This document shows, one piece after another, positions 1 through 43,840 of a stretch of DNA of 64,000 nucleotides; the first letter of the stretch is position 1; every line of letters starts with the position of its first letter. Position numbers and translations under genes: made by a program. The notes beneath the pieces were generated by a model. It worked only from the letters and a program-made list of their open reading frames with translations, had not been told where the DNA came from and ran no database searches. Origin of the DNA: Octopus vulgaris (lineage: Eukaryota); NCBI GenBank assembly GCA_951406725.2, contig OX597815.1, positions 43,834,001-43,898,000 on the forward strand, given 5' to 3'.

Positions 1-319
1 TAGGCAGAGAGCGAAGCGAAGAGAGAGAGAGAGAAAGACACAGATATAGAGAGGCAAAGAGAGAGAGCGCATATGTGTGTGTGTGTGTGTGTGTTTATTT
101 AAAAGAGAATTAGGCAGTGGTATAGAAAAAGAGTGAGAGGATGAGTAAATGGAAGAAAATATTAACAGAGAAAGAGAGGGAAAGAGTGAGGGTGAGAGTG
201 AGATTTTGAAAGAGAAGGGGAAAAGGAAACATAATAAAAGCATCAGAGTGAAGAGAGAAGGGGAGAGAAAGAGTAACATACTAGTAGAGAGGGGTAATGA
301 AAATGATGGCACCACCCAC

Positions 320-728
320 AGTAGGCGTGGTTTACTGATTAAAATTTGAGGAACGCTCATCACAACATTTATTTCATACGTTGCTTCTCAGCGAAGAAGC
401 TTGCCACGCAACGAGTACAAGGTAGACAAGAATTATATATAAACATATACGCTAACAATTACGTACTAAATTTTACTATGTACTGCTAATGATTGGAACT
501 ATTTAACGTCAAATTTATTAACCGAGGAAAAGGAATATATACAATAAATATATATATGTATATTATATATATTTGAAAAGACACCAATTGTAATATATGT
601 TCTACATACATGCATGTCTGAGCGTATGTTTACAAGTGAAAACAGATAATTTCTCATAGATAGGATTTGATATCTATCTATATGGAAATTTTGACAACTT
701 TATTTTTTTATTGGTGATTATTTAAACT
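320..728 (+). promoter_or_regulatory. Possible promoter/5' UTR of the host CKI
   Basis: GGCGTGG ~324, TATATAAA 436-443, ATTGG/CCAAT motifs, TGTTTAC 627-633; the TSS cannot be determined. Confidence 0.25.
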
Positions 729-2052
729 ATGAAGCTAATGGAAGGCGAATGCATTTATACTCCGGCCAGACCTAGCGGTCAGTTTCCGACACCTAATCGC
801 AGAATGCCACAAACTGTTATTAATACGGGCTCTAGCAGCGGGACCCGCATTGCTGCTCAAATTTTGGATCCTCGCCGTTTGTTAAAGGCTCGCCGAAAAC
901 TTTTCGATGGTGATTCTGAACCATCATCGGAACTGAATAATCCATCTGGGAAGACGGCGGCGGCAGCAGCGGCAGCTACAGAGAAGTCCGAAATCTGCCA
1001 ACGATTATTAGAAGAATGCCAAAACAAATGGAACTTCGATTTGGTTAATTGTGTACCACTGGAAGGTCGTTACGAATGGGAAAAAATGGAACCAGAAAAT
1101 GTACCAGGATTCTACTCGAGACCTTACACCAACCCCAAACGTCCTGTCCCAAACGTCCGAGAAAGTTATTCTCCAAATATGGTTGCCAATGGAAGTTACA
1201 GTAGAATACGATTCAGGGAAGACAGCCAGTCTAACGAAAGTACTTCTAGCTGCCTTCCTGGTATGGATGTTACAGTGCTTACTAAACTGAACAGCGGTAA
1301 TAACGACAATAACAACAGAAACAACAACATAGCTACCAACAACACTAAAGGTTGTGATCCCAATGATATTTATAATGTCCCTACTGCCTCTATCTCAACT
1401 TCTACTACGACTTGTGAACTGGAAAATACCAACGGTAAACAACAGGATATTACTGACGTGTGTAATGACAACCTTACACACAGCAGTACTTACTCTTGTA
1501 GTAATCGTAGTAGCAGTAGTACTAGTAGTAGTATTAGTAGTAATAATAATAATAATATGGGTAGTAGTATATTGTCTACGACAAACCGACAGAGAGGTAA
1601 GTCACCTCTGTGTTTTTCAGCTTCTGTGAAAAACGTAAACACTAGTAACCTACATGGATCTCACGAACAAGACAGTAATAATGATAATAATATTAACAAC
1701 AACAACAACAACAATAATAATGTTTTCTCTGGAAAGTCTGACACTTGTGATACACTAACCAATAGACTCAGCGAACAGCTGGACAATAAGCAATGTTCGA
1801 ATTTAACGGCAATCGATAAGGCCACCATTTCATTACCGTCATTATCATCGTCATCATCATCGTCCCCTTCCTACTCTTCATCAGCACCATCATCACCATC
1901 ATCTTTATCACCACCATCCTCATCACCACTATCCTCGTATTCTTCTTCTACATTACCTGTATCATCATCATCATCATCGACAACAACAAAATCCTACTCT
2001 ATGGAAACACTTAATGAGACGAAAACGTTGCCAAAACAAACCAAGATAGTCG
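729..2052 (+). CDS. CDKN1B: Cip/Kip cyclin-dependent kinase inhibitor (CDKN1A/1B/1C-like), coding exon 1
   Basis: The ORF contains a CDI domain: cyclin-binding ARRKLF (RxLF), CDK-binding KWNFDLVNCVPLEGRYEWE, and VPGFYSRP (cf. p27 LPEFYYRP). A long N/S/T-rich low-complexity region follows. A strong donor G|GTAAGT sits at 2052/2053 after KQTKIV. One-to-one orthology to a vertebrate paralog cannot be resolved, so the symbol is family-level. Confidence 0.93.
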
Positions 2053-2470
2053 GTAAGTCGAATTTTTAATTTATTTAATTATTATTGTTGATGTTGATTA
2101 TAATTTATGATAATTGCTTGTATTGTTAATTATATCGACCTGAAGAGATAAAAATTCAAAATAAAATTGGCCAAAGTAAGATTTAAAACCAGAACGTAAA
2201 AAGTCCGGATCAGACACCGCAATGTATTTTGTCCGAGGTTCTTAGTGTAGATTCAATGCGTGAAAGTGTCTAGTGTTAGCTCATATATGCATGTAAATGT
2301 GTATATATTTGGTACTTGCGAATGTATATAAACAAACTCTTTCTAATTGTTCCTTGCCTTTTTTGAAACACGAAACACTTTGCAGTAAATTATTATTTTT
2401 CTATGTTACTAATCTACATACGCTTCAGACAGACACACAGATAGACAAATAGATAGATAGATAGATAGAT

Positions 2471-2549
<79 letters not shown>

Positions 2550-3380
2550 GGTTGTATTCCTCGTTTTGCTTCATCAATACCATACCCGCCCACTTTATAT
2601 ATAGATTCGTGTCATGGATTACCTATTACACACACAGGCGCACACCACCCTTCTCCGTGAAGGTGAAGGGAACAGTCCTTCCCTACACACCACCATCTGG
2701 TCAATCTGTTACAGTTCATGTACGATAGAACAGAAGGTCAATCGTTTTCGTTCAACCTACTCGATTATGATTGATTGATATCTATCTCCCGATTTATTAA
2801 TATCCTACCGTCCTAGAAAAAAAAATTGAAGGGATTTATAAAAGAAAAAGAAAACAAAAACACATTGGATTTGTGTCGCAGTATGGCTGGTAGGTACACT
2901 TACGGAAAAGACAGACAGAATGGCCCCAGCTGCAGTAGTATCGTCGAGGAAATCCCGTTAGTAGAAAATTAAAACATTGATGCCGTCTCGCGAAAATAAC
3001 ATCCTAGATGAAATAACTGCAAAAAAAAAAAATTGAAGCACCAATGTTACTGCTGGTGTGTAAGAACGTAACCATTACTTTTTGCTTCTGTTGTTGTTGT
3101 TGGCCCCTATTGTAATCGAGCAGACATTTAAGGCATTTTTCAAGGTGGTGTTTTTCAGAGTGGGGTTCCATCAAATAATATATATATATATTTTTTTTTT
3201 TAATGGAATCGAGCACTTGGTTTTAATGAATTTCATTTTATAAATATGTATTTTAAAATAAATTGCTAGTTGACCTTTTCAAACTTAATATAAATTACAC
3301 GAAATTTTCGCTTTTAGGAAATATATATATAGGCTTGTGTACACACACACACATACATACATATATACATGTATACATAT

Positions 3381-3450
<70 letters not shown>

Positions 3451-4004
3451 ACGAGAGATAATGTGTTTTATTGATATTACATTGCCAGCCTCTGCGACCC
3501 ACCTTCCAAAATAGATGTGGGCTACAGCTATTTTCTGGGAAATATTTACAAGGGTTCCGTAACGAGCAAACTAGTTTAGGAACCGCTGCCTTTTAGGGTA
3601 TTCTCCCACGTCTGACCAACTGACAACGTTCCTCCCTTTTCAACATTTTCTACAGCGGCAAAGTTGTGATTCGAAATAAACTTCATTGCTATTTCTGGAA
3701 GGTCAACCCTTCCACGTAGAGGTTCCTTCTTTGGCATTATATGTTTCAGGGAAAGGAGTAATGACTAGCTGTAGTACTGTTGTTTTTCCCCCCCACTTCT
3801 TTCTCGTTTCCTTATACCTCTTTTTCTCTTCCCCTCTCCACCGTTTCACTTACTTACAACACACGCACACACACATTGTATTCTATGACATCTGATTGTG
3901 TGTGTGTGTGCTTGTGTACATTATTTCGTTATTGAAGATAGCATATATGAACGTAAAAACTATTAAAAAAAGCGATATATGCTATACACACGTACATATT
4001 GTGT

Positions 4005-4050
<46 letters not shown>

Positions 4051-4069
4051 CATACATACATACATATGA

Positions 4070-4246
4070 TAGACTTAAATGCAAAACTTTTTGTGTATAT
4101 ACAGATTACAACTATTAGTGTTGATTATGCGTGTGTGTATGTGTATGTGTATAGATATACACACACATAAATAGATAGATAGATAGATAGAGATTTGAAT
4201 GCAAAACTGTGTGTATACAGATTACAATTTGTGTTGATTATGCGTG

Positions 4247-4302
<56 letters not shown>

Positions 4303-4348
4303 AAATAGAGGCTTGAGTGCAAAAAAATTGTGTTACAGATTACAAACA
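4070..4348. repeat. Three diverged ~60-bp direct repeats separated by microsatellites
   Basis: tgcaaaa..tgtgt..acagattacaa recurs at ~4070, ~4190 and ~4310. Confidence 0.7.
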
Positions 4349-5989
4349 TACATACATACGGGCCCCGCCTTTTATCGGGCTAACAATTAATTGTACCTTC
4401 TCGGGGCCTACGATTAATTATATAATAATTATGCACACGTATATACGCAAACAAAAATTGCATATATTGTTTGTGTGTGTGTTTGTGCATGCATTCATGT
4501 ATGTATGTTAATGTTCGCAGTTATGGAAGTAATTAGTCATATATATAGAGAGAGATAGAGAGATAGTCATATATATAGATAGATATACACATACACACAC
4601 ACACATAAATACATTTTGTGTGTATGTTTGTATGTACTGTCACACACACACACACACGCACGCACACACACACATACGTACGCACACACACGCTACATTT
4701 TCTCTTCCACCCAAGGTTACTTTTTTTCTGTGTCATCCAGGCTTTACAACTCGCTGTGTGCACTATTCGTATAGTAAACATTGTAGTAGCATAGAGTAGT
4801 ATATACACACACACACATTTATTCACGATCAAGTATCGTAAAGTTGTATGTGTATATATATATATATATATATATTACTAATGATATTAATAATAATTAC
4901 TGGTTATGATTATTTCAAAACCTTTTTTTCTTTTTCGACCGATAACGTCTTTTTATAAGTCTCTATAGTAAATATTGCTAGCGAGTAGTTACTAATTTTT
5001 TTTAATATTTTTTTTTTTTTTTGCTTTTTTATTGATCGATAGAAACCTAATATCCAAATTTCATCAATAATCCTTATAGATTTTAAAAAGAAAAATAGAT
5101 TTGCGTTCATTATTATTTTTGTTAAGAGAATACTAAACTTAAGAAAAAATACCGAAATTTGGGCTGCTTATTATTTTGTGATGTTTTGCGTACTGTATGT
5201 ACTACTACTAAAAAATTTTCTTAGTTTCAACTACTACTAGTACTACTTACTACTCGCATCTATATGCGTGTGTAATAATATGTGTAAGAAAATCGTTTAT
5301 GTTAAGCAATTTACTAAGTGCTACAACGTTGTCGTATTGGATTTTGTGTTTACAAGACCGAGGGGTGGGGAGCAGCATCCCAATATTCACAGTAGTAGTT
5401 GTATTTTTTTCCCCCTAGTTCTAGACATAGACACGCTGTGAAAATGGGAGCTTTTTGGATAGGTACAACTCCTCTCTCGTCGATATCAATGTTGAAATTA
5501 TTAAAATTTTTTTAAAGCTATCGTGATTATTAATAATAACTGCAAATATTTTTATGCTATGCATGTAGTTTTATTACTAAAGTATGCATGCAATCTGTAT
5601 GCGCATGCATATTCTGCACACACACACACACACTGTACGTATACACTCAAAATCTGCAAGTGCGTGCTTAATATGCATGGTATGCGCGCACTATTTGCTA
5701 ACACTATAATTATTGTGCGATACGTAGAATGCATTAATTGCAATAAGCAGAGAAGCAATATAACGAATATATATGTATGTAAAAATTAGAACTGGAATGG
5801 GATATTTGCAGTAAGAAACTACAGAATACATATGGCGTCTATATAAATGCAAGGAATTAAGAGAGGAAGGGAGTAAAATGTGGATTAAGTTTGTTGTAGA
5901 GTGCCCGAGTGTGTGTGTGTGTAATGTCGAAAGAAAACGACAGAGTATAATTGTAAAGGGGGTAAATGCGAGAGAGTAAGAGTGCGACT

Positions 5990-6090
5990 GACTGACGTAT
6001 CGTGTTAGACGCCAGTGCGTGATGGGCGGAGCTTATTTGGCTTGACTTATAAATACTGAGCGAGCGCCCAGCCTGCTACTTAGTGACTTG
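5990..6090 (+). promoter_or_regulatory. Core promoter of the nested gene (CRE-like, GC box, TATA, Inr-like)
   Basis: TGACGTA 5993-5999, GGGCGGAGC 6024-6032, TATAAAT 6048-6054, and CTACT/TTAGT initiator-like motifs ~30-34 nt downstream of the TATA; locally CpG-richer than the flanks. Confidence 0.65.
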
Positions 6091-6742
6091 TTCTCAAGCA
6101 GACTACTGCTCTTGCGACCCGTTATGAGCGTCACAGTCGAGACGAATTTAACGTTACTATTACTACTATCATCAATATTGCAATCGTCATCTTCACTTCG
6201 ACTGTTGAACAACCTAACTGAAGGGAAACTAATGACTCTCAGTTTCTTTAAAGTTTTTGAGAAACTAAAACGGAATACTTATTCGTGTTCGGCAAGCGAT
6301 TTTAAGAATATAAGGCGTTAGTAAATAACTCTATATGCCACCGTGGATTCCTTACCACAGTCGTCACATCATTAAACAGATACATCATCACATCTAATTT
6401 ACAACACGAATTTTCATCGAAATTTCTTTTATTTCTGAAAACGATCGAACTTACTATTACGAGAAAATCACGGAAAAAAAAAAAAGGAAATTATTCGGAA
6501 GATTATCTTTCTCTCTTTCTCGCGCATTCTATGACTCATACACATACACTGTGTTTATAACAATACACACACCTACTGAATCACAATTAACAGTACAACT
6601 TCGATTATTTTTATTTTCTCAAACTTTTTTACAAAACGGAACGGATATAAGAAGCGACTAAATTTAGATTTGGATTCTTTTGTTGTTGTAGTCAACAATT
6701 TTCCATCATTATTAGGATTTTTAAAAGAAAAAATATTCCAAG

Positions 6743-7411
6743 ATGTCAAAGGTAGCAGTAAAACGCCCAGCTCAGTATTGCTTAACGTTCGACGATGACA
6801 ACTGCAGACCGAAGCGCTTTGACAGTAATATTGCGACGGAGAGAGACACTGGTCGACAATATGAGCAAGATTTTAACAACAACATTTACAAAAAAGCTCT
6901 CGAAGATTTGATAGTTGCGGAGCTCAAAAAGAAACTCGAAGAGGAGGCACGCCGTTTTAAAAAGAAGTGGAACTATGATTTAACAGATCAGAAATTCCTG
7001 TCTGGTGACTATTGTTGGGAAGCAAAATCTGCCAAGTCCTTTCCAATATCTTACGCTAAGCATTGTTTTTATTCGTACTACGGAGCTCAGCCGCTGTACC
7101 TGAACAGTGATGAGTCGGGGGTGGAACCTGACTGCCATTCAAAATCTTATGACAACAACGATAGCGGAACTGTTACACCACAACAAACTACTACAACTGT
7201 TACTACTACTGATGTACTATCATCGAACGACGAAATAGCAACAGAAACATTAACAAATACTAATGATACTCGCTCAATTGGAAATCCTGTAACTACTATT
7301 TGTAACGAAAACGCGGAAAACGCTGATGGCTCCTTACGCTTAATACCTATAATTTGTTACAAACCCAGGGATTCAGAAGGCGATATTCTTGATCGTCAAA
7401 GGCCAAACTGA
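6743..7411 (+). CDS. Intronless divergent Cip/Kip (CDI-domain) protein, 222 aa, nested in intron 1 of the host CKI
   Basis: Uninterrupted non-repetitive ORF with a good start context (aagATGt). It has a CDK-binding segment LEEEARRFKKKWNYDLTDQKFLSGDYCWE..FPISY, a degenerate cyclin motif AQYCLTF, a T/N/S-rich tail, and a promoter upstream. Confidence 0.85.
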   Translation: MSKVAVKRPAQYCLTFDDDNCRPKRFDSNIATERDTGRQYEQDFNNNIYKKALEDLIVAELKKKLEEEARRFKKKWNYDLTDQKFLSGDYCWEAKSAKSFPISYAKHCFYSYYGAQPLYLNSDESGVEPDCHSKSYDNNDSGTVTPQQTTTTVTTTDVLSSNDEIATETLTNTNDTRSIGNPVTTICNENAENADGSLRLIPIICYKPRDSEGDILDRQRPN

Positions 7412-8644
7412 GAAGCTTGAACATAAGTTGTATTTCAACAAATTCTGTCCTGCTGAACATATTCTTGATATATATATATATTGTGTGTATATATATATAC
7501 CGTCCACTGAAGAATCTGTCACACACACCTTTGTCCCTACCTCTTCGATTCGCCACCTCTATCACGTTTCAAATTGTATTTATTTCTATTTATTGATCAT
7601 CATACAGCTATCATGCCTGAACTTTATCCAATTTTGTTTTCTTCGATGAAAAAGTTCATATTTATTTAATTTATTTCTGAATAACTTTAAGAGAGAGAGA
7701 AAAAAAAACTCTTTGGACTTATTTTTGGGCGAAATTCCACCCGCCTTTTCTGGAAAGCCTTCCACGATCTCAAAAACAAAAAAAAAGTAACTTGATGATG
7801 TGAGGGTGGCTAAGCTTGTTTTGTCTTCTTACCGCTTTCCCCCGCTTCCTTCTTTCCTATGTGTGTAACTCGTTCGCTCCTTTTCTATAATATTGTGATA
7901 ATGAGTTCAAAAGTGATCGTGTACGAACAGTTTATATAACCCGTTATCATAACTGCTCGATGTTGGCAGCAGGATTTATATCCGACTCACAAAATATACA
8001 TCAAAATTGATCTCGTTTAAATAGAAAGAAACAAGACGAAACAAAACAAAAAAAAGGCAACAAAACTTCGCTTGATTATAAATTAAATATGCAGCACAGA
8101 AAAAAAAAATGCTTAAGGAAAAAAACCTCCGACGAGGCTGCATATTATTCTGATCTCGAGACTGCAATGTATAAAAATTGTCATTTACTAAAAAAAACAG
8201 AAATGATCGAAGTAAAAGATTCCCAACGGTTAGTATGTAATTATGTTTAAGTACTAACGCGCATGACTGCTGAAATTAACAATATTCTCACTCTGACACA
8301 CACACTCACACACCCCTTTTACTCTGTGTATGTAAGCAAAAACATGGGTTGTTCAGCAAGTTGGTAGAAAAGTGTCTTATTAAAACGTCTCTTCGTATAT
8401 AGATTTGCAACTATTTAGTCTTAAAATATAACTACATGATTAGGTTTTTACTCCTCAATTTTCTTTTGAGAGTTGCGACCTCGTCTTTTCGATTACCACC
8501 GCCAGCCTGTTATTGGGTACCAAATACATATTTTCTCAGTTGATGCAATTTACATTATTATACAAATAATAACGGGTTTAGATACACTTCTTCCAACTAA
8601 AATACATTAATCACATCACAAATAAGCATGTATGTCTTTTTAAC

Positions 8645-8686
8645 ATCTTGTTTTGCCGATTGTGTATCTTGTTTTGCCGATTGCGT
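8645..8686. repeat. 21-bp tandem duplication
   Basis: atcttgttttgccgattgYgt x2. Confidence 0.85.
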
Positions 8687-8939
8687 GTCTCTCTCAAAAT
8701 TTCTTTAGTCTATAAAATATTGCAAATGTTTCTTAAATTTCTAGATTTTCGTTCGGAACTACTACTTATTGTTTTTTCATTTTTATATATGGATATTGTT
8801 TGCTTTATTGCTTTCTAAAAAAACAATTAGTCTAACGGTAGTATAGTAACAATCTGTCTAATCTTCAAAAAACAAAACTGCTTTTTCTGAAACTTTTCGA
8901 TAATTACAAATGCCAGAAAATGTTCGTAACCAGAATGTT

Positions 8940-8975
<36 letters not shown>

Positions 8976-9779
8976 TGTGTGTAAAGACAACAGATTTGGA
9001 GGGAGGCGGGGGCTTAATGTCAGTTGACAGCAACGTACTTCCTTGTAACTAATTTAAAGGGGTCAGACCTTGTTATATATATAGTTTTACTCTGATTCTA
9101 TACGAGTTTACCCTTTTTAAAAGTACAAGTCGTCTGTGGAATACTCGGCCACTTGCACTACTGTTATATAATTGAGTACGTTCAATTTGTTCGAACAACT
9201 GGAATGCTTCATCATCGAAACTGATGACAATAACTACATCCATCATACATACCCCTTAAATTGATATTTTAGCAACAGTAATAGTTGCTATTGTGGTGTG
9301 GGAAGCTGTCTGTGTGTGCCTGTGCGTAGTTTTCCAGACCTTGCCTCCTTTCCTTGTGCACATTGTGTGTGTGTGTGCGCGCCTCACACACACACACACA
9401 CGCACTACATAATAAACACACATCTGGAACCGATGGAGGTTGTGATGAAGTAATCAGGCTTATAGTAACTGTGTGTACTAAACGTGATTTGAGGAGGGAG
9501 GGAAAATTTGTATTACGAATTTTGTTGAATTCAAAGAGTTTTTAGTACGTCAACTACTTTATATTACATGTTCAACATAATATTGTGTTCTTTAAAGGCA
9601 TTGTAAAACAACAAATTAATACCTTTTATGACAGATTTTATCAATATGTGAAATACGTGTTACGTGTTTGTATCTATCTTCACAGCTCGTCCTATCGAGG
9701 TTATTTATTGGAATCGATGAAATTCCTTTTAAAAATATGAAGCCTTGTGCTTAAATTGGAAACTTATTGTTAACACAAT

Positions 9780-9975
9780 TGTTAAACCGTCGGACAAAGA
9801 TATTTAGAAGCATTTCGACTTATTTTTAGGATTCTGAGTTCAAATCCCGCCGAAGTTGTTGACATTTTATCCTTTCGAAGTCGGTGAAATAAAGTAGTGG
9901 TACCAAACAAACACCCAATTCATGTAGTAGTAAATCGACCTTCCTCTAAATTTCTGGCCTTGTACCCAAACTTGT
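9780..9975 (+). mobile_element. Diverged SINE family B copy in intron 1
   Basis: B-box gagttcaaatcc plus tttatcctttcgaagtcggtgaaataaagta, similar to the 30581-30813 copy. Confidence 0.65.
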
Positions 9976-10299
9976 AAACCTCAGTTGTATATGATGATGT
10001 GATGCGTTAGTCATCATTATAACCAGGCTCGTTCCCCATATCCCTCCAATTCTTTCGCAGCGTGGATATATAATCCTAAATGCGCGCGCGCTTCTTTTCT
10101 CTCTATCGCTTCTCTTCTGTTGTTAATCCAAACAATTCCCCTTCCCTTTCCCGAAACAAAAAAGAATTTTGTATTGTGTAACAAAATAATTTCATTATTA
10201 TTATTATAAAAAAATATTGTAATCCAATAATCTTGATTTATTTTACTGCAAGTTTAGAATAAAAATTAAAAGTAGACACTTTTTTTTACTTTTTTGCAG

Positions 10300-10376
10300 A
10301 TTTTATGCCACACAGAAAGCGAACGCTATCTTATTGCCACACTGGAAACAGAGAAAAAAAATTAAGGAAAGAATAA
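10300..10376 (+). CDS. CDKN1B: Cip/Kip CKI coding exon 2 (PIP-box half, basic NLS, second RxL)
   Basis: A polypyrimidine tract ends in TGCAG at 10299. The phase-1 join gives KQTKIV-D-FMPHRKRTLSYCHTGNREKKLRKE* (TAA 10374-10376), which aligns with p21 QTSMTDFYHSKRRL. A donor GTGAGT follows at 10411. Confidence 0.88.
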
Positions 10377-10410
10377 AAAGAATCAACCCCATATTGCTGT
10401 AACAATCAAC

Positions 10411-11701
10411 GTGAGTTTTGTTTTTGTTTAAAAAAGCATTCAACTTCTTTTAGCTGCTTTGCTCGAAGATCTCCGAAGGATGCGATAATCTTAGTTTAGT
10501 TATCTCCCTTGGTATTAATGTGTGTGTGCGTGTGTGTGCTTCATATTATAATATATCGTGTGTAGAATAGATGTACGACTGCTTTAGAGCCACGTAAAAT
10601 TGTCTCCCGTCTGCTTCCAGCGTAGTGTTTTTTTTTTTAGCTACGACTAAATTCTGGATGTACAGAGCAAAATATAGGAGAAATTACGATAAACATAAGC
10701 TCAAGTTTATTATATGTCCTTTGTTCTTTCGACGTTTCACCGTTGAACTCTTCATTTTGCTCTTCCGAGGGAGGGCACTTTATTTGTTATTATTACATTA
10801 TGTTTATGGCCGACACTTAGAAATAAAAATGCTTGTATAATATAAACTATCATAATACGGACTAATTAGATCCAGCAAGTACTCGCACGAAGGAATCCTC
10901 GTAAAAGCGTGAATGCTCAAATCCCGTATGAAATGTCGTTATCGCGAGACTTTTTATGTAGTCTTTTATTATCTCCCTTACTTTTCCAGAAAGTTATTTT
11001 CTCTACTAATTTCTGATTAATGTATAAATGCATATTGTATTGTATTGTGTTGTATAAATATAGTGTAGTGCGTGAATTATATTATGAGAGAGAAATGCAC
11101 ATAGGTACAATATATGTCGATGCAAAATCTAACGCCATAGGTTTTTTTTTTTTTTTACATATATAGTTAGTCTCAAAGTAAAATAATAAATAGTACGTAT
11201 TGTTTTTCTCTCGATTATAAACTATAAGATCTCGATTTGGAGATCTTTTAGAAATTAATCTAGAGAGATCGTATAATAACAGTCTACATTATAATAGAGT
11301 TCATATGATATGATATAAATTTATTTTGCTATGAGGTTGTACAGGTGGGAAAACTTGCCATGTTATCAGTTTTCCTAGTCAATTTAGTTACGGCATATCT
11401 ATACTATACAACTAACCGTTTTCTCCCCGCAAACGGTCCAACTTCATTTCCGGCCAACTCTCAGAAAAATGAATATTTTTTTTCAAATAAAATTTTCCGT
11501 GAAGACGCTTCAGATTGTATAAATAGATTTGAGATTGTATTGGACTTTGCAGGGCGGGGACGACACTTGTGTAATATGTGTATACCTTGGTTACCTAGTA
11601 AAATAATTCCTATTATATAGTATGCCTGTCTTAATTAATTAATTACCTTTAAATTTTGCATTTTAAAATATTTATTTTATTTCTATTTTTTTTTATTGCA
11701 G
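10411..11701 (+). other. Probable intron 2 (in the 3' UTR)
   Basis: GTGAGT donor 34 nt after the stop; a long T-rich tract ending ttttattgcAG at 11701. Confidence 0.65.
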
Positions 11702-14700
11702 TTATTTCACAGAATGAACTCACTCAAGCAATAAATAAAATAATACGTATATACAAGGACACTTCGTGACAAAATGAAAAGGTCGCATCGTGAAAAATTT
11801 TCAAGTACAAACAAGACTATAATTTATATATGTATATATATATATATAATATTAATATCTTGGTTGAGAAACCAGACTGTTCTTTCCACTCTATGGTGCT
11901 TTTATGGCAGCACAAAAGTTACTGATGATGACATTAAAATACATATATAATTTTAAAGGCTGCGAAGAGACTGAAATAAGAATGCTGGAAGAAGAAGCAA
12001 AATTTATTCAACTCAACTCCTATAGCTGGAAAAAACATTCACCCCCACCCCCCTCTTGGGAGAAGTGTGATTCCTTTGCAGAGAAATGCTTGAGAAAAAG
12101 CTATTTAGAATAATTGAGTGAAATCATCTATTATCTCTCAGTTTAAAAAACCCTTTTTGGCATTGAAATTATTCTGTCAAATATATAATACTTCAATAAT
12201 ATTCATTGTTTTGAATTAATCATGTATATTATATCTCGTAAGGTTTCAATGATGTTCGTTTATTTTAAAGAATGACATTGTAGGATTGGTGTAAATGGCC
12301 AAACCTGGCTAATTTGAATGAACACACGGAAGAATAATTTGAGCCAGATATGTCTGATTCAAATGTTAAAAAGGGTTAAGGAATCGTAAGGCACTTGCAT
12401 CATTTCCCCTCACATCCAGTCTTTTGTGGTTTTTATAAAGATCTCTCTCTACATTGATTTATTAATTTAAAATATTGAACTGGAGGTTTAGGTTCAAAGA
12501 ATATATTATTATTAGATATAGGAGAGTATGAGAGTTTGTGTGAGTGTATATGTATATGAGTGTGAAATTTTCATTCAACTGTTGCATTCCTTTTTTTTTT
12601 TTTATGAAATGACAAAAATCAATCACATCATTAAATTTATATTTTTATATTTAAATATCATTCTTATATAAAAAACAATAATTGAAAAAAAAAAAGTTAA
12701 GGTAGAAAGAACAATTCAATCTTAATGTGATAATATTTTGCTGTTGCAGAAATCACTTCAGGGAATCAATGTATGTTTTTTTATACCAATATATAATAAT
12801 GATAAATAATTAAAATTTAATCAGTTTCTTATGAAGAAGAAAATCTGCAAACATCAAAAGTAGTGTTTAAAAGAAGCTTATGTGTTGTGTAGTAATTCTG
12901 ATTAAAAAACAAAGAAATTAAGTTAGCTAAGTTAGCTTAACGGTCCAGCATTGAACAATATAAAAATATTTTTCCACTGCTCGATGTACGATTTGCTGGG
13001 ACCAAGAAGGAAAAACATTAATTTTGTATCATTATTTTTAATTAACTTTTTCAACTTAAACCCCCCCCCCCCCCCATACATGGTAATTAAATCTTGCTGC
13101 TAAAAGAATCTCCATTTGAAAATTGGAAGAAAATCTTGAATAGATTTTTTTCCTCACCTCTTGAAAAATTTTTGTCTTTAGCTAGTTTTTTTTTTGTTTT
13201 TTTTTTTTCCAATATTGTAGCATTTGTGTATGTGTGTGTCTGTGTAACACAGTAGGCAGCATATCTAGTTTGACTGCAACAGGATGTGAGTGTGAATGGG
13301 AAACTGTATCATTCAAAATATTAGTTTTAAGTGTGAATAGAAAAAAGCGAAGTATTATAAAGCATTTAAGAAGCTGCTTGCTGCAGAATTTACATTGCTT
13401 CTAATGAATGTGGTACACAAAAATGAATCATGATTATTAGAATTGTATTATTTATTTTTCACAGATTCTTTTCAAAATTCTCTTTCATAAATGATTATCA
13501 TTTTCAAAGGTACATATAATTATTATTATTTATATATTTAAAAACAGAAAAATTAACATTAAAAATGAGTTAGAAATAGACAAAAAAAAATATATTTTTC
13601 AATGAATCTAATTAATATTATATTTATAGATTGAGTATTCTTAAAAATTCTGTGATAAGGCTTAAGTGATCTCGAGAATCTTATTATGATTGATCCCATT
13701 AAATTTAAACAGTTGGATCAGTGCGATGTTTGAAAAGGAAAATTGTGTTTGCATATTATACATATATATTATATACATGTGTATGTAAAATATATATATA
13801 TATATAGAGTGTGTGTGGTTATGTACATATTATTACTGCTGCCAATATGTTTTTTTGCTCCATTTCATTATTTATTCAATATGCTCATAGAAAAAAATTT
13901 TTTTGGTTAGATAAATATAAAATGAATGGATTCTTTTTGCTTTTCCAAATGTGCATAGAATATATGTACTGTGCAAAATTTCTATCATACAGAGAAAAGA
14001 AAAACTTCATAATTTAAATTCTCTTTGTAATAATAATAATAATAATGATGATAGCTTTGACTTAATAAGTGAACAAGATATGTAAAGAAGATAATGACTC
14101 ATTTTTCATTAACTATACATATAATTAATATACAACAAATTTTGATGCAATTAAACAGGTTTTTTTCCAGCAGTGTAAGTTAGTTTTTAGATTTAACAAC
14201 TTTTTTTTTTTTTTTTACAAGTAGCATCATCTTGGCAGCAGTATTTTTTACATCGTTAGCTTTTTAGTAATGGGGGTAAATTATTAAAATAGTTTTAAAT
14301 ATTTTGACAAATGCAATTTTTTTATTATATAATAATAAATGCTGCTGTTTATTTTTGTTCTTTGAGCCTTACATGTTCAATTTGACTTAATGTGTGAACT
14401 CGTGAAGATTTGATCTCCATCTTAAGAAAATCTTATGAGCTTTACAAAAAATATGAAAATATATTTTTCTTTGTTGAATTATTTTATTTATGCATGTGAA
14501 AAATAATGAACATATTGTACATAATTTATATTTTCAATTTCTCATTTAATGGATAGAAAAAAACTAAAAGAAAACTCAACAACAGTAAAAATACATACAC
14601 TTACTTAACAATCACATCAGAATCAGAATGTTGAAGCCCAATTCACATTTATTGACAAATATTTTTCCATTTTCTTTCCTTATCTTTTTCCTTCTATTTA

Positions 14701-15065
14701 CCTACAAAAAATCTTTTCTTGACTTCTTTCTTTCTTCAAGATATTTTCATTCATATTTTAACATGCTTACACAAAAAAATCATCTCTGCATGTGCACACA
14801 CACACCCACACCCACGCACACACACATGAACGAACACGCATATAAACAACACACTAAGCATAATTCAGATGGTACCTCATCCATCTCATTGAGTGTGTAC
14901 GAAAAAATGTCCATAAAATTATTAAATTGAAAAATCTATTTATTTATTTAAAAACATATTGTTAAAGTTTTTTTATGTGTAAATTATATTAAAAAAGTAA
15001 TTATGAAGAAAATTTGGAAAAGAAACACATTGAATGAAAATGTAATAAATATTATTATATTGTTT
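11702..15065 (+). other. Probable non-coding last exon / long AU-rich 3' UTR of the CKI gene
   Basis: Follows a strong acceptor. It is AU-rich and nearly SINE-free for ~3.3 kb, and ends at AATAAA 15044-15049 followed by a GU/U-rich tract. Proximal AATAAA hexamers also exist. Confidence 0.5.
12151..12375. mobile_element. piggyBac-like MITE within the putative 3' UTR
   Basis: Termini ccctttttggcatt / aatgttaaaaaggg; TTAA on the right flank. Confidence 0.6.
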
Positions 15066-15090
15066 AATTTGTTTGTTCTTGTTTGTCTTT
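15044..15090 (+). terminator. Candidate polyadenylation signal with downstream GU-rich element
   Basis: AATAAA followed by ttgtttaatttgtttgttcttgtttgtc; TE density rises immediately afterwards. Confidence 0.5.
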
Positions 15091-15107
15091 AACATCAATT
15101 TTTATAA

Positions 15108-15348
15108 CCCCTTTTCACTGTGGTTATTTTTTCATTACTGATGTTTATATACCAAGAAGTAAAATTGGTATTTTCTGTGAATCAAGTTGCCTCGATAAAC
15201 TTGACTTGACTTTTATAGTAATCTAATCTCAAACAAAAAAATAGTTTCAAGCATAATAACAAGTTTGGTATATAAAAAAACTGCGTTATGAAGTTTGGAG
15301 GTAATTGAAATTTTGAATGGATATTATCTGATATGCACAGTAGAAGGG
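15108..15348. mobile_element. piggyBac-like MITE
   Basis: Termini ccccttttcactgtg / cacagtagaaggg followed by TTAA. Confidence 0.5.
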
Positions 15349-15459
15349 TTAAAATGGCTTTTTATTGATTAGTTTGCTGAGTGTGAGGCAGCTTGCTTTT
15401 CTCATCTGACTCCTTACACAAGAATGTTGATTTATGCCTAGAACTTTTCTCCAATAAAT

Positions 15460-15960
15460 GAAATGGTGGTGGATTAATTCTCATAAAAATATTGAGTGCA
15501 AAGCACTTCTTCCACAGAGTGTGGTTGATATAATAAGAAAGGCAAGATTATTATTGATTCATCATTGTTGTTTGACTTGCAAAATCCTCTGGGATTTCCC
15601 AATCCAAACAGATCAGGTGATGGAGCATAAAACAGAGTGGACGGACCTAGTGGTGGCCAACAAGATGCACCACATGTGCTAATATATATAGTTGACGTGT
15701 ACCTCTTTGATCCACGAACAGTCAAGAAGGAAGGCGATAAAACACAAGTACAACCCTCTTAAGTACGAAATAGTCCGGCTATGAGAAAATGAAGGTGAAG
15801 ATAGTGCAAGTTTATTGTTGGGTCCTTGAAGACAGTATCAAGGCATCAAGAGGAATATATAAAGGAAATTGGAATAGAGTGCCCAGTAAGAACAGTTACA
15901 GTTTGCTTCCTTGGCACGGCCTAAATAATCAAGGAAGTAATTAATTAGATACTTGAAAAA
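15460..15960 (+). mobile_element. Decayed 3' end of an RLE-type (R4/Dong/NeSL-like) non-LTR retrotransposon
   Basis: Frameshifted translation KILWDFPIQTD..DLVV..IVDV..KYNPLKYEI..IVGSL..LGTA resembles a restriction-like endonuclease domain. Confidence 0.7.
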
Positions 15961-16757
15961 ACAGATAGCATGGTTACTGTAGGCTGCCTCTTGCCATATC
16001 ATGCCCTCAGTACATCGTGGATATATCTGTAAATTTATATATTGCAGATTCAGTATATCCATGGGTTTCTGAGCTTCTTTCCTTTGCTTCTCTGCTCATT
16101 TTGTTGTCACCTTTCCTTTCCTTTCATGATAAATACCTGGTTGATCCTTGCTAGTCGGTCAGTAGTTAATGTTTGTTCACAGGAAGAATCTTTCTATATA
16201 AGCAAGCCACGCAAAAAGCTTAAATAAATTCCATAAACAAAAAAGTGGAAACTATTAATAGGCTCCAGAGCTGAGGACCTTCATTTGAGATTTTTATCCC
16301 TCACTGCAAGTGGGGAGAGATGATAACTGGCAATTTCTAGAGCTCAACCAGCCGTCCAAGAATTTGTACGTGGAGATCTCCATTTCCAGCGACTTCGAGG
16401 GCCACCTCTCAGTGGTGTCAGGCGTCAATGAAGAGCCCTCGACTACAACAAGATGACCAAAGTTTTTTTTTTTTTTCCAAGGTCTGGGCCTCCCGCCCCT
16501 AAGCCCTAGACCATCACCTATCACCCTTACCCGTCTTGTTGCTTAACAACAACAAGAAATTCAACCAAGAAATGAATTGAAGTCAAGATGGAAGAAATAG
16601 TTGCAGTAAAACAGCTTAATACGTGATGGAGCCACTGCTGCTGCTAATCTTTCTGAATGGCACACCAAACAAAAAAAAAACACTACTTTGAAATTTTTTT
16701 TTTGCAATGCAGCCCACCTGTTGATGAGCCATGTCTCATGCAGACTGCTTCTCAAGA

Positions 16758-17132
16758 ATTATTGCCCATGCCAGCTTGCTCTTCTATATCAATTTTTATA
16801 AATTTACATTGAAGGATATTGAAATAGAAGTAATTTTAATAAAATTCTTTTTTTTTTTTTTTTTTTTTGTGCAAAAGGGCTGAGATATATATAAAATGTC
16901 AACCATACAAAAATTAAATGTGGGGGTGCTAATTAAATTGCCAGTCTTGCCAAACAAATAACAAAATCCTTAAATTCAAAAAGTATACAAAATACTTTGC
17001 ATCAATTATTACCCATGCCTGCTTTGCTCTATGACAATTTAAAAAAATTTACATTGAAGGATGAAATAAAAACAATATTTGGTAAATTTTTTACTAAAAT
17101 CCTTTTTTTGTGCAAAAAGGCTTGAGAGATAT
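16758..17132. repeat. Diverged ~130-bp direct repeat pair
   Basis: aattatt.cccatgcc..aaatttacattgaaggat..tttgtgcaaaa.gg at 16758-16890 and 17003-17132. Confidence 0.75.
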
Positions 17133-17929
17133 GGCCGATTTCAGAAACATAATTTTATTCTGGAAAAATTAACAATAGTCAAAGTATGAGCAGTATCTAT
17201 GCAACTCAGCCATCAATCAACAAGATTATTTATGCTTTGTTGATAAAAAACTTATCGGCTTTGATGCTAAGAAATCTTTGAAAGTTGATTCCACCTCTGG
17301 TTTGGATCTGATGTGGTAAAAGTCTCATATCCCTAGTCTGTGAGTTTCTGCAGTGTCATTCTTGTGACATGTGGCTTTGCATTATTATCATGGAGCAGAA
17401 TTGGGCCATGCCAATTCACCATTTTTTTTGCAAGTGAGCATGCTTTTCAGTGATTTAATTGCAGTAAACCTCTGCTGTAATGCTCTGATTGGCTTCCAGA
17501 AAGCTGTAATAGACAATACCAATTGCAGACCACCAGACGGTCACTGTAATTTATTTTAGCTGGATGCAATTTTGGCTTTGGGAAAATGTTTGAGGGACTC
17601 CTCATGACCAAGCCATTGACCTTGATCATTTACGGTTATCTTAATCACTTAAGAGAGCAGCCAATTATTTTCAGAACAACCTAATATATTTAGAACCTGG
17701 AATGTAGAGAATTTCAGTGCTGAAGAAAAACAGCATTTCAAGCTGAAAATTAAGCTAGAGCATTGAAATGGCCTTAAAAAAGTAACGACGAATCACTCCT
17801 ACTACATAATAATAATAAATACTACAAAATATAAATCTTGTACCCTGAAGTGACTATTTAGGAAGTATAAATAAAATGATTTTTATCATAGAAAATAACT
17901 AGAATGATTCATATTGCTGTTCATTAAGA

Positions 17930-18990
17930 AGGCATTGAGCTGGCAAAATCATTAGCACACTGGGCAAAAAAATGCTTAGCAGCTTTCCATCCATCTTTAT
18001 GTTCAGAGTTCAAATACTACCAAGATCATCTTTGTCTTGATCATCTCAAGGGTCAATAAAATAAGTATCAGCTGAGCACTGGGGTTGACATAATAAACTT
18101 GCCCTCTCCCTTGAAATGGCTGACCTTGTGCCAAAATTTGAAACCAAATATTTAATGTTATTAAGGTGGTGAACTGGTAAAATCAATAAGCTTATCAGAC
18201 AAAAAAACCCTGCTGCCTAACAGGTCCTGTTTAACACATGCTCTAATTTTAAATTCTGCCAAGTTCAGTTTTGTACTTCATCCTTTCATGGTCAATTCGG
18301 GGTTGATTAAAATAAAAGTACCAGTCAAGTCCTGGAGACAAAATAATTATTAAGTGGCTCCTTCCCCTCGGAATTATTAACCTTGTGCCAAAATCAAAGA
18401 ATTATTATTAATGTCGCTAAGATGGTGGGTGAGCTGGCAGAATCATTACCATATCATGGACACTGAGGTTAATGTAAATTGATTTCCCCATTCCTTTAAA
18501 ATTGCTGGCCTTGTGTCAAATTCTGAAACCATTATTATTATTATTGTTGTTGTTGCTGCTGCTAAGGTGGTGAGCTGGCAGAATCGTCATGCAAAAAAAT
18601 TCATCTTTACATTCCGAGTTCTAATTCCAACAAAGTCAACTTTGCCTTCCATCCTTGTGGGGTTAATAAAATAAGTACCAGTTTGAACACCAGGGTTTAT
18701 ATAACTGACTTACTCCTTCCCCAAAAATTTCTGGCCTTGTACCAAAATTTGAAACCATTATTGCTGCTGAACTAAGGTCAATTGATAGAATTTTCAGAAG
18801 ACTAGGGAAGAATGTCTCACAAGTATTTCTTCTGACTCTTTTACATTTGAGTTCAAATCCAGTCAAGCTGATTTTTGCTTTTCATCCTTTCGATGTTGAT
18901 ATAAAATGAAGTACACGCCAGATCTGTATTTGGTTTGGTGTAATCATTTAAATCCTTCCCTCAAATTTACCAACCTTGAGCTAATTAAAT
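17930..18990 (+). mobile_element. Head-to-tail array of ~5 diverged family B SINEs
   Basis: Repeated (ggtggt)gagctggcagaatc..gagttcaaat..tttcatccttt..aaataagtaccag..ggccttgtgccaaaatttgaaacc units. Confidence 0.8.
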
Positions 18991-19397
18991 TAGCAGTAAC
19001 TATTACTACTACTTTCAAGTTATAAGGACTAACTCAGAGCAACACTGAAAGCCACTGGAATTGAGCCTAAATTGTTTGTAATATAAGCCCAAGTCTGTAC
19101 CAAGTGGCTATATTCCATCATCATCAGAACCAAAAACTTCAAAACCACCAGTTGAGAAAGGAAAGAAATCAAAGATAGGAGTGAAAGGCTTAACAAAATC
19201 AATCTAGTCCTCTACCAAACAATTACCATGCAGTCATCAATGCTATTACCATAAAGGAAGCCTTTAGCAATGAAGAAACTAAGTTCTCTGATATGAGATA
19301 AAGCTGACAACAAATTATTAGTACTGTTGCTGCTACTAGAATAGAAGTTAACAAGAGAAAGAATTGGGTGAAACTTGGCCAACAAAGTATCTTGTGA

Positions 19398-19560
19398 TCA
19401 TCATCATCATCATCGTCGTTTAACGTCCGTTCTCCATGCTAGCATGGGTTGGACGGTTTGACCGGGGATCTGGGAAGCCAGAAGGCTGCCCCAGGCTCTG
19501 GTCTTATCTGGCAATGTTTCTACAGCTGGATGCCCTTCCTAACGCCAGGATGCCCTTCCT
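19398..19560 (-). mobile_element. 3' fragment of another SINE family with a (GAT)n tail
   Basis: Reverse strand reads tggcgttaggaagggcatccagctgtagaaac...catggagaacggacgttaaacgacgatgatgatg. Confidence 0.6.
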
Positions 19561-19574
19561 ATTATTTAAATACC

Positions 19575-19866
19575 TTTGTGCCCTTTTCAAGCCTAGCCAG
19601 GCTCATGGGCCTGGTTTCCCGGTTTCTGTAACGTATGTGTTCCCCTCAGCTGGACGGGACACCAGTCCATCACAGCGTTACTCAAAAAACAGGAAGAGAG
19701 AGTGAGAGAAAGTTGGGGCGAAAGAGTACAACAGGGGTCGCCACTACGCCCTGCCAGAGCCTCGTGGAGCTTTTAGGTGTTTTTGCTCAATAAACACACA
19801 AAATCGAAACAGCAATCCTTCGACTGTGAGTCCACTGCCCTAACCACTGGGCCATTGCACCTCCAC
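19575..19866 (-). mobile_element. tRNA-derived SINE family C (Meta/V-domain-like tail variant)
   Basis: Reverse strand starts gtggaggtgcaatggcccagtggttagggcagtggactc; the tail includes gatggactggtgtcccgtcc and gaaaccgggaaacc. Confidence 0.8.
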
Positions 19867-20300
19867 ATGTTATATCAAGCTGAAGTTAAACTGGCAATCC
19901 CCTCTCTTTCAGAGATTGATAACAAAACAACCCCAAGCAAAAATTGGGGAACCTATTTTGGTGGGCCAGTTTAAAAATTAGATCTCAATGAAGTGCGTGG
20001 CTTTGTGCTTCTATATAAGGTATTGTCATGACTGATTTATTATTATTACTGCTACTGTTACTTACAAGTTTGCTTTTTTTAGTTTATTAGTGGAAAACAT
20101 TATTCTTGTACTCTCACATGAAACATATTCACATATTAAAAAAAGCAAGTACAATCATTTGCGAATATTGACACACATTAACAACCATATAATAAAATAT
20201 TAATAATATAATTAGTTAGCACTAATCGACCGGATATTAAAAAAAAATTATGGAAAATGTGTACAAATAAATCTCTTTAAATGTGCACTCAGAACCTTGT

Positions 20301-42910: not shown

Positions 42911-43840
42911 CTCCAGCAAATCGTCAATGAAGAATCAGACTGAACTCAACTCTAGTCTGATCTATATGCTGTGAGTCAATGGGCAGACAGAAACAAAATG
43001 CAACTAAATGAGGGAAAATTTGAGCTGATGCATTTTGGAAGAAATTCCTCACTAAAACAACCATACTCTCTACCTTCAGGGGAACCGCTCACAGCCTCTA
43101 ACAATATCAGAGACCTGGGTGTAATTGTTGATGACGATCTCAGTTGGAGTGCACACATCAACAAGAAGGTCTATATAGCTCGTAGGATGAGTTCCTGGAT
43201 CTTAAGAACTTTCCGGTCCAGAGAACAAGGTGTCATCATACCACTTTTCTCCTCCTTTGTACGGCCACACCTTGAATACTGCTGCCCACTGTGGTCTCCC
43301 CATACAAGACAAAACATCTCCAGGATTGAGTCACCCCAGAGGGCACTCACTAAACGAATTGAAGGCATGGCTGCTCTCGATTATTGGGATCGCCTTAAAG
43401 CCTTGAAACTTTACTCCCTTCAGCGTCGCCGGGAGCGGTACATCATTTGTACGATGTGGAGAATATACCGCCAACTTTGCCCAAACGACCTTAACATTAG
43501 CTTCAAGGTTCATCCAAGACTGGGACCACGGGCCATACGTCCCCTGCCCAATTCAAGATCACAACATATATGTAGACTGCAACATAATTTCTTTTCCTCA
43601 ACAGGCCCTGCCCTATTTAACATTGTCCCAAGGGAGATAAAGAAGGAAAAGGATCCCATCAACTTTAAGATACCAGATAAGCCACCCATAATTGGATACA
43701 ACTCACCCAACAAGAACTCACTACTTGAACAAAACTTGACTTAAACAGGATTCGAATAATCCTATCAGGTGGTGCTATTAAGTTAGACATGGCCTGGACC
43801 AATCTTTGGTCGAAACATATCTAAGTTGTCTAAGTTAAGT
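42911..43840 (+). mobile_element. CR1/L2-group LINE 3' fragment (RT C-terminus + 3' UTR)
   Basis: QLNEGKFELMHFG, IRDLGVIVD, FVRPHLEYCCPLWSPH, YWDRLKALKLYSLQRRRER; ends in short taagt repeats. Confidence 0.92.

Follow-up and report, generated by a model that had tools for sequence, protein, structure and literature searches.

At CDKN2A, which produces INK4a and ARF, alternative promoters serve different first exons, and these are spliced to the exons that both forms have in common. The common exons of the UGT1 and clustered protocadherin (PCDH) genes are translated in every form and in the same frame, and ARF is read in an alternative frame. As described in an excerpt of PMC1885805, UGT1 and the clustered protocadherins combine tandemly arrayed first exons and alternative promoters with common exons. 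The NESP55 form of GNAS carries a whole ORF in an alternative first exon and uses exons 2–13 as 3'UTR (PMC2671723, excerpt). The Drosophila inaF-A to -D proteins are homologous products of one locus (PMC13012068, excerpt); the inaF genes share a 3'UTR, and 14 fly genes share 3'UTRs (PMC4528330, excerpt).

We describe here a Cip/Kip locus of Octopus vulgaris in which the first intron of one inhibitor gene (the host) contains a second unit that is, with high probability, an alternative first exon, probably with a promoter of its own, in which a paralogous ORF is complete and for which host exons 2 and 3 are 3'UTR. Like inaF, this single locus encodes homologous proteins and has common 3'UTR exons; unlike in inaF, octopus exon 2 encodes the PIP tail of one form but is UTR in the other, and the protein family is unrelated. 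As in NESP55, the alternative first exon has its own ORF and stop and is spliced to common downstream exons, but NESP55 is imprinted and unrelated to Gs-alpha, whereas in the octopus the inner ORF and the host are paralogues. Unlike in UGT1/PCDH and INK4a/ARF, the second exon 1 stops before the junction. The layout is known in kind from inaF and NESP55; the octopus locus joins paralogy to a shared exon that is translated in one form and untranslated in the other. In the literature searched, which included few subscription papers, we found no report of the structure of this locus, or of such a layout in any Cip/Kip gene; a search by accession gave no main text, although the O. sinensis protein occurs in the supplement of PMC12693960, and a RefSeq transcript model may already show the shared exons. 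The original prediction was of a second gene nested on the same strand inside the host intron, which it presented as unusual; same-strand intronic nesting is less so than implied, and the FlyBase excerpt (PMC4528330) does not flag it as exceptional.

Organization of the locus

Coordinates are positions in the window, the whole 64,000-nt stretch of O. vulgaris DNA that was analysed (OX597815.1, 43,834,001–43,898,000, forward strand). The locus comprises the following features.

729..2052, + strand: host first coding exon, 441 codons plus 1 nt, ending CG/GTAAGT; it encodes an RxL at residue 56, the CDI at residues 90–119, a long low-complexity linker and the first half of the PIP box
2053..10299, + strand: host intron 1, phase 1; the annotated protein equals the exon 1 and exon 2 translations
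5993..6084, + strand: promoter-like elements of the second unit, with TGACGT at 5993, a GC box at 6024 and a TATA element, TATAAATA, at 6048
6078–6084, + strand: initiator-like site of the second unit, with TTAGT at 6080
6076..8228, + strand: alternative first exon of the second unit, roughly 2.15 kb, in 4/4 runs; 5' end approximate, ending CG/GTTAGT
6124..6560, + strand: four ATGs upstream of the ORF, within a leader of about 660 nt, opening frames of 65, 29, 20 and 9 codons
6743..7411, + strand: Cip/Kip-family ORF of 222 aa, closed by a stop of its own; the CDI spans about 6917–7021, and RxL and PIP box are absent
7412..8228, + strand: 3'UTR before the splice donor, 817 nt, no AATAAA
8229..10299, + strand: 2071-nt GT..AG intron spliced out of the second transcript, in 4/4 runs
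10300..10410, + strand: shared exon 2; completes the PIP box and encodes the basic tail of the host, 3'UTR of the second transcript
10411..11701, + strand: shared intron 2, GT..AG; listed contigs in runs X1 and X17 bridge 10410 to 11702
11702..12500, + strand: non-coding exon 3 of both transcripts, running on beyond 12500, where the aligned stretch ends

Much of the original prediction held at this level. The locus contains two Cip/Kip-family ORFs, of which the second is intact on the + strand and still open (in 4/4 sequences), and the predicted GC box, TATA and initiator-like sites are present. The Pfam PF02234 check, run on both proteins, scored both CDIs above the cut-off of 25 bits: 30.5 bits for residues 59–93 of the second protein and 40.5 bits for the host (ORF 729–2052). 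The predicted extent of host intron 1 agrees with a 466-aa database protein (O. vulgaris CDKN1B), which is identical letter for letter to the translations of 729–2051 and 10302–10373, with one junction codon between them; an O. sinensis database record has the same spliced end as the O. vulgaris host protein. The host junction from 2052 to 10300 lies outside the contig-aligned stretch and rests on these gene models and on the contig break described below.

Rfam gave no matches in window positions 1–20000, and inspection of the 20 kb upstream by eye showed no plausible ORF of any length. Elsewhere in the window, a 262-aa open frame (42956–43741) looks by eye like the C-terminal fragment of a LINE reverse transcriptase.

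The second unit is spliced to host exon 2

Assembled contigs from 4 of 20 sequencing runs containing the unit, one per study from four studies, were mapped on positions 4900–12500. None of the runs is recorded as RNA and they were taken as such from their exact GT..AG joints; the splice evidence comes from two organisms, both near-identical to the window. In all four assemblies the contigs span the inner unit, starting at about 5875–6076 and running to 8228, where they are joined to position 10300, the first nucleotide of host exon 2. We interpret the unit as an alternative first exon and not as a self-contained nested gene because of this junction. As a rough hint to its use, junction and exon contig depths were 17.3/16.3 and 54.1/54.5 (in X5 and X17 the two are one contig), and listed contigs that run unspliced past 8228 had depths of 5.5 and 5.3. 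The second gene had been described as intronless and as ending near 7700; the former is true of the coding part only, since the exon is spliced, and the contigs go on to 8228 in 4/4 runs. There are 19 in-frame stops from the stop of the second ORF (7409–7411) up to the donor, and no in-frame reading into exon 2.

The contigs also bear on the host junction. The junction contig ends 29 letters inside exon 2 in 4/4 runs, and the downstream contig in X1 and X17 carries one extra 5' letter ahead of its genomic match. The break and the extra letter together suggest that the same acceptor is also joined by another upstream exon whose last letters are CG, as those of the host exon are.

The 5' ends of the contigs lie at 6076, 6021, 5946 and 5875, which cannot fix a start. 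None of the listed joints leads from upstream into the inner exon, contigs being unable to show starts; the four long exon contigs run through 6084 with neither a listed joint nor a loose end there, and no match to host exon 1 was found among the listed loose ends (35 further loose ends exist). The inner exon is unlikely to be a cassette exon of the host, because no listed joint or loose end links host exon 1 to it.

Other joints, with sides of 21–24 letters and non-GT/AG ends, were taken as artefacts. A weaker third donor at 9544, also joined to 10300, was seen at low depth in one of the four runs (X17). A 72-codon open frame (8011–8226) reaches the second donor in a frame that differs from the PIP frame, and 31 of 2000 shuffles held one that long; it may represent a downstream ORF, or A-rich composition may account for it.

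Leader and position of the stop codon

Substrates of EJC-type NMD have a stop separated from the last junction by more than about 50 nt and are stabilised when UPF1 is lost. From the stop of the second ORF it is 817 nt to the first junction and 928 nt to the next, an NMD-type layout, whereas the host stop (10374–10376) lies 34 nt ahead of the next junction, so that the locus forms a built-in pair of mRNAs, one with and one without this layout. The second transcript is plentiful in 4/4 runs, and NMD is therefore at most partial. Mammalian Cip/Kip mRNAs are under NMD control (PMC6680220, excerpt); the literature that we searched, in abstract or excerpt, did not establish EJC-dependent NMD in molluscs.

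Run X17, from the second organism, has no listed differences from the window in 6076–6321 (246 nt, holding the 65-codon upstream frame) and eight in the next 421 nt. This may be a weak hint of constraint on the segment without differences.

The second protein retains CDK-contact positions and has no canonical RxL or PIP box

The second protein resembles the Cip/Kip proteins p21, p27 and p57 (PF02234) in its above-threshold CDI, which scored 33 bits in a six-frame search of the genome, and in its best PDB match, p27 (E 0.005). Alignment to p27 indicates that the CDK-contact positions W-N-F/Y-D, G-x-Y-x-W and P-x-x-Y are retained in 4/4 orthologues. It differs from these proteins in having no canonical RxL(x)F cyclin motif ahead of the CDI helix (0/4 orthologues, with only an xxLxF at residues 12–16) and no C-terminal PIP box and basic tail (0/4, whereas the host has both), in its family-specific N- and C-terminal motifs, and in being encoded as the alternative first exon of a paralogue. 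By eye, RxL(x)F occurs in 20 of the 21 spiralian CKIs that PMC12693960 lists in its Table S7, a table seen in excerpt, the O. sinensis orthologue of this protein being the exception, and a strict PIP box in 13 of the 21.

Between the candidate LxF and the CDI Trp the distance is 64 residues, compared with 45 for the host RxL. The N-terminal stretch of two orthologues (P0002 and P0003) resembles, by eye, the RxLxF of a Helobdella CKI in the excerpted table of PMC12693960, and the conserved xxLxF may be a remodelled cyclin dock. Residue 13 (6779–6781), inside this candidate docking stretch, is Cys in the window and in O. sinensis, and Arg in P0002 and Argonauta.

Judged from its sequence, the second protein is a divergent Cip/Kip-family protein and not a canonical member, and is predicted to be a CDK-binding inhibitor without the PCNA-binding tail of the host. 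Its inhibitory activity is uncertain, because the CDI match spans profile positions 13–47 only and the RxL is missing in 4/4 orthologues. An AlphaFold model (pLDDT 35, low confidence) is largely disordered with one helix before the CDI Trp, and CDI clusters at 0.84–0.86 in the ESM Atlas serve as a lead only.

Conservation and relation to the host

Orthologues of the second ORF share 99% identity with it in O. sinensis, 84% in another assembly and 52% in Argonauta hians. Relative to Argonauta, identity is highest in the N-terminus (20/23), followed by the CDK-binding region (40/50) and the C-terminus (16/27), and falls to 12/42 and 26/80 in the first and second linkers; the N-terminal 23 residues are thus conserved more than the CDI itself. 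The six gap events in this comparison leave the frame intact. In a neutral simulation limited to substitutions, with the window ORF standing in for the ancestor, both copies were stop-free in 0 of 1000 trials at 52% identity and in 58 of 1000 at 84%. Judged from these comparisons, the second ORF is not a chance frame and is under selection. The ORF itself is also older than the Octopus–Argonauta split.

The similarity between host and second protein is confined to the CDI, with 16 of 48 residues identical, in agreement with the original view that it is limited and the duplication old. Between the two units, the best DNA matches are 30–35 nt long (E 0.004) and fall outside the CDI. The O. sinensis protein has already been placed as a CKI in a phylogeny (PMC12693960), whose available parts do not comment on gene structure; in the leaf order of the CDI tree in its supplement, the two O. 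sinensis proteins are adjacent.

A four-orthologue profile searched against 1.84 billion representatives returned only the orthologues P0001 and P0003, and a metagenome scan returned no homologues of the second protein. Searches with the host protein gave only an Octopus cluster and two weak p27-like matches, with none among shorter proteins, and found neither an Argonauta host gene nor squid or cuttlefish orthologues. The absence of deeper homologues does not date the duplication, because the squid and cuttlefish host orthologues were also not found.

Alternative explanations

The original proposal, in which the intron contains an intronless gene that is independent, is polyadenylated at a site of its own and affects the host through interference or premature termination, would account for the promoter-like elements, the separate start and stop and the separate RefSeq gene id of the O. 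sinensis protein. The inner unit instead shares host exons 2–3 by splicing in 4/4 runs, its contigs reach 8228, and no AATAAA precedes the donor; the single ATTAAA between stop and donor (at 8082) could serve a minor end. We consider this explanation very improbable and, as the main form, largely refuted; neither the proposed nested poly(A) site nor premature host termination at it finds support. More improbable still is that the inner transcript is mainly a regulatory or NMD-bound RNA with a decaying relic of an ORF. The four upstream ATGs and the distance from the stop to both junctions agree with such a relic, and the window protein was not found by exact-sequence look-up in a protein collection. 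Against it, the ORF is open in 4/4 sequences, its conservation is region-specific, and the gap events that separate it from Argonauta cost no frame.

Two further alternatives leave the present structure as it is and concern the origin of the unit and the function of its protein. The unit may have arisen as a retrocopy or dispersed copy that landed in the intron and captured a cryptic donor later, in line with a coding part without an intron and with DNA similarity to host exon 1 or the donor region that is gone. The host CDI sits in one exon, however, so that a copy of exon 1 also gives an intronless coding sequence; a spliced-mRNA copy would bring the PIP tail, absent in 4/4 orthologues, and the same strand, similar exon length and same CG/GT donor context also speak against an origin of this kind, which we regard as improbable. 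A weightier alternative, though still an unlikely one, is that the second protein is no longer a cyclin–CDK inhibitor and has become a CDK-only binder, a decoy or assembly factor, or a protein that engages a new partner through its conserved N-terminus, a tyrosine-rich stretch (109–114) and its C-terminus. The RxL(x)F missing from 4/4 orthologues and present by eye in nearly all spiralian CKIs of the excerpted table, the conservation of the N-terminal 23 residues above that of the CDI, and the longer distance from LxF to the CDI Trp point in this direction. Against it, the CDK-contact positions are kept as far as Argonauta, and the Helobdella-like N-terminus of P0002 and P0003, seen by eye, suggests that the protein may still dock cyclin.

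Proposed origin and mechanism

We favour an alternative first exon that would derive from an old tandem duplication, in which promoter, exon 1 and donor were copied into intron 1. A stop inside the copied exon would then have changed exon 2 from coding sequence to UTR while splicing to exon 2 was kept. This interpretation agrees with the shared strand, the similar ATG-to-donor distances (1324 nt in the host and 1486 nt in the second unit) and the CG/GT context of both donors, each of which matches 7 of 9 consensus positions. It also agrees with the loss of exactly the part that exon 2 encodes and with the adjacent leaves in the published tree. None of the DNA similarity that would prove a tandem duplication is left.

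PCNA-coupled destruction in S phase through a PIP box with a basic +4 residue is established for p21-type degrons. We propose that the second protein, in the manner of p27, engages the N-lobe and the ATP pocket of CDK and that, having neither the PIP box nor the basic +4 residue, it would escape this destruction and would not compete for PCNA. Cyclin docking may be weakened, or shifted to the conserved N-terminal LxF stretch. Promoter choice, probably through a separate promoter, would determine whether a canonical inhibitor is made or one that does not respond to PCNA; the distal 3'UTR controls would be common to both mRNAs, and the four upstream ATGs and the early stop could damp the second form or bring it under NMD control. 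Taken as a whole, the account, with its alternative first exon, duplication origin and functional steps, is in our judgement reasonably probable. We put forward more speculatively, as a doubtful extension, that the locus works as a two-gear brake, in which the promoter used decides whether the inhibitor made is canonical and PCNA-degradable or has no degron, no RxL and an altered cyclin preference, and the exon that toggles between coding and UTR places the second form under uORF/NMD control, for example to lock cell-cycle exit on differentiation.

If the account is correct, two inhibitors that differ in degradation and docking arise from promoter choice alone, and the second would be a natural separation-of-function form with no PIP box and no RxL. 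Because the 3' end is common, the two forms would not be told apart by 3'-tag single-cell data or by probes to the 3'UTR of octopus 'CDKN1B', and the co-expression test proposed originally therefore needs 5' or full-length reads.

CDI loci and cyclin-fold ORFs in the genome

The region 5900–8300 is single copy in the genome, and the six-frame search identified two real CDI loci, the host and the second ORF. A third match (21.5 bits) fell below the cut-off and was rejected, as by eye it lies in a broken, retroelement-like stretch. With only two CDI loci in the genome, the locus may represent the whole Cip/Kip repertoire of the octopus.

Elsewhere in the genome we observed divergent cyclin-fold ORFs, each a long single frame (277–365 aa), in tandem arrays: five at 103.11–103.24 Mb of C4 and four at 72.22–72.27 Mb of C8, with one similar ORF at 19.58 Mb of C25. 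These look like lineage-specific expansions of intronless cyclins.
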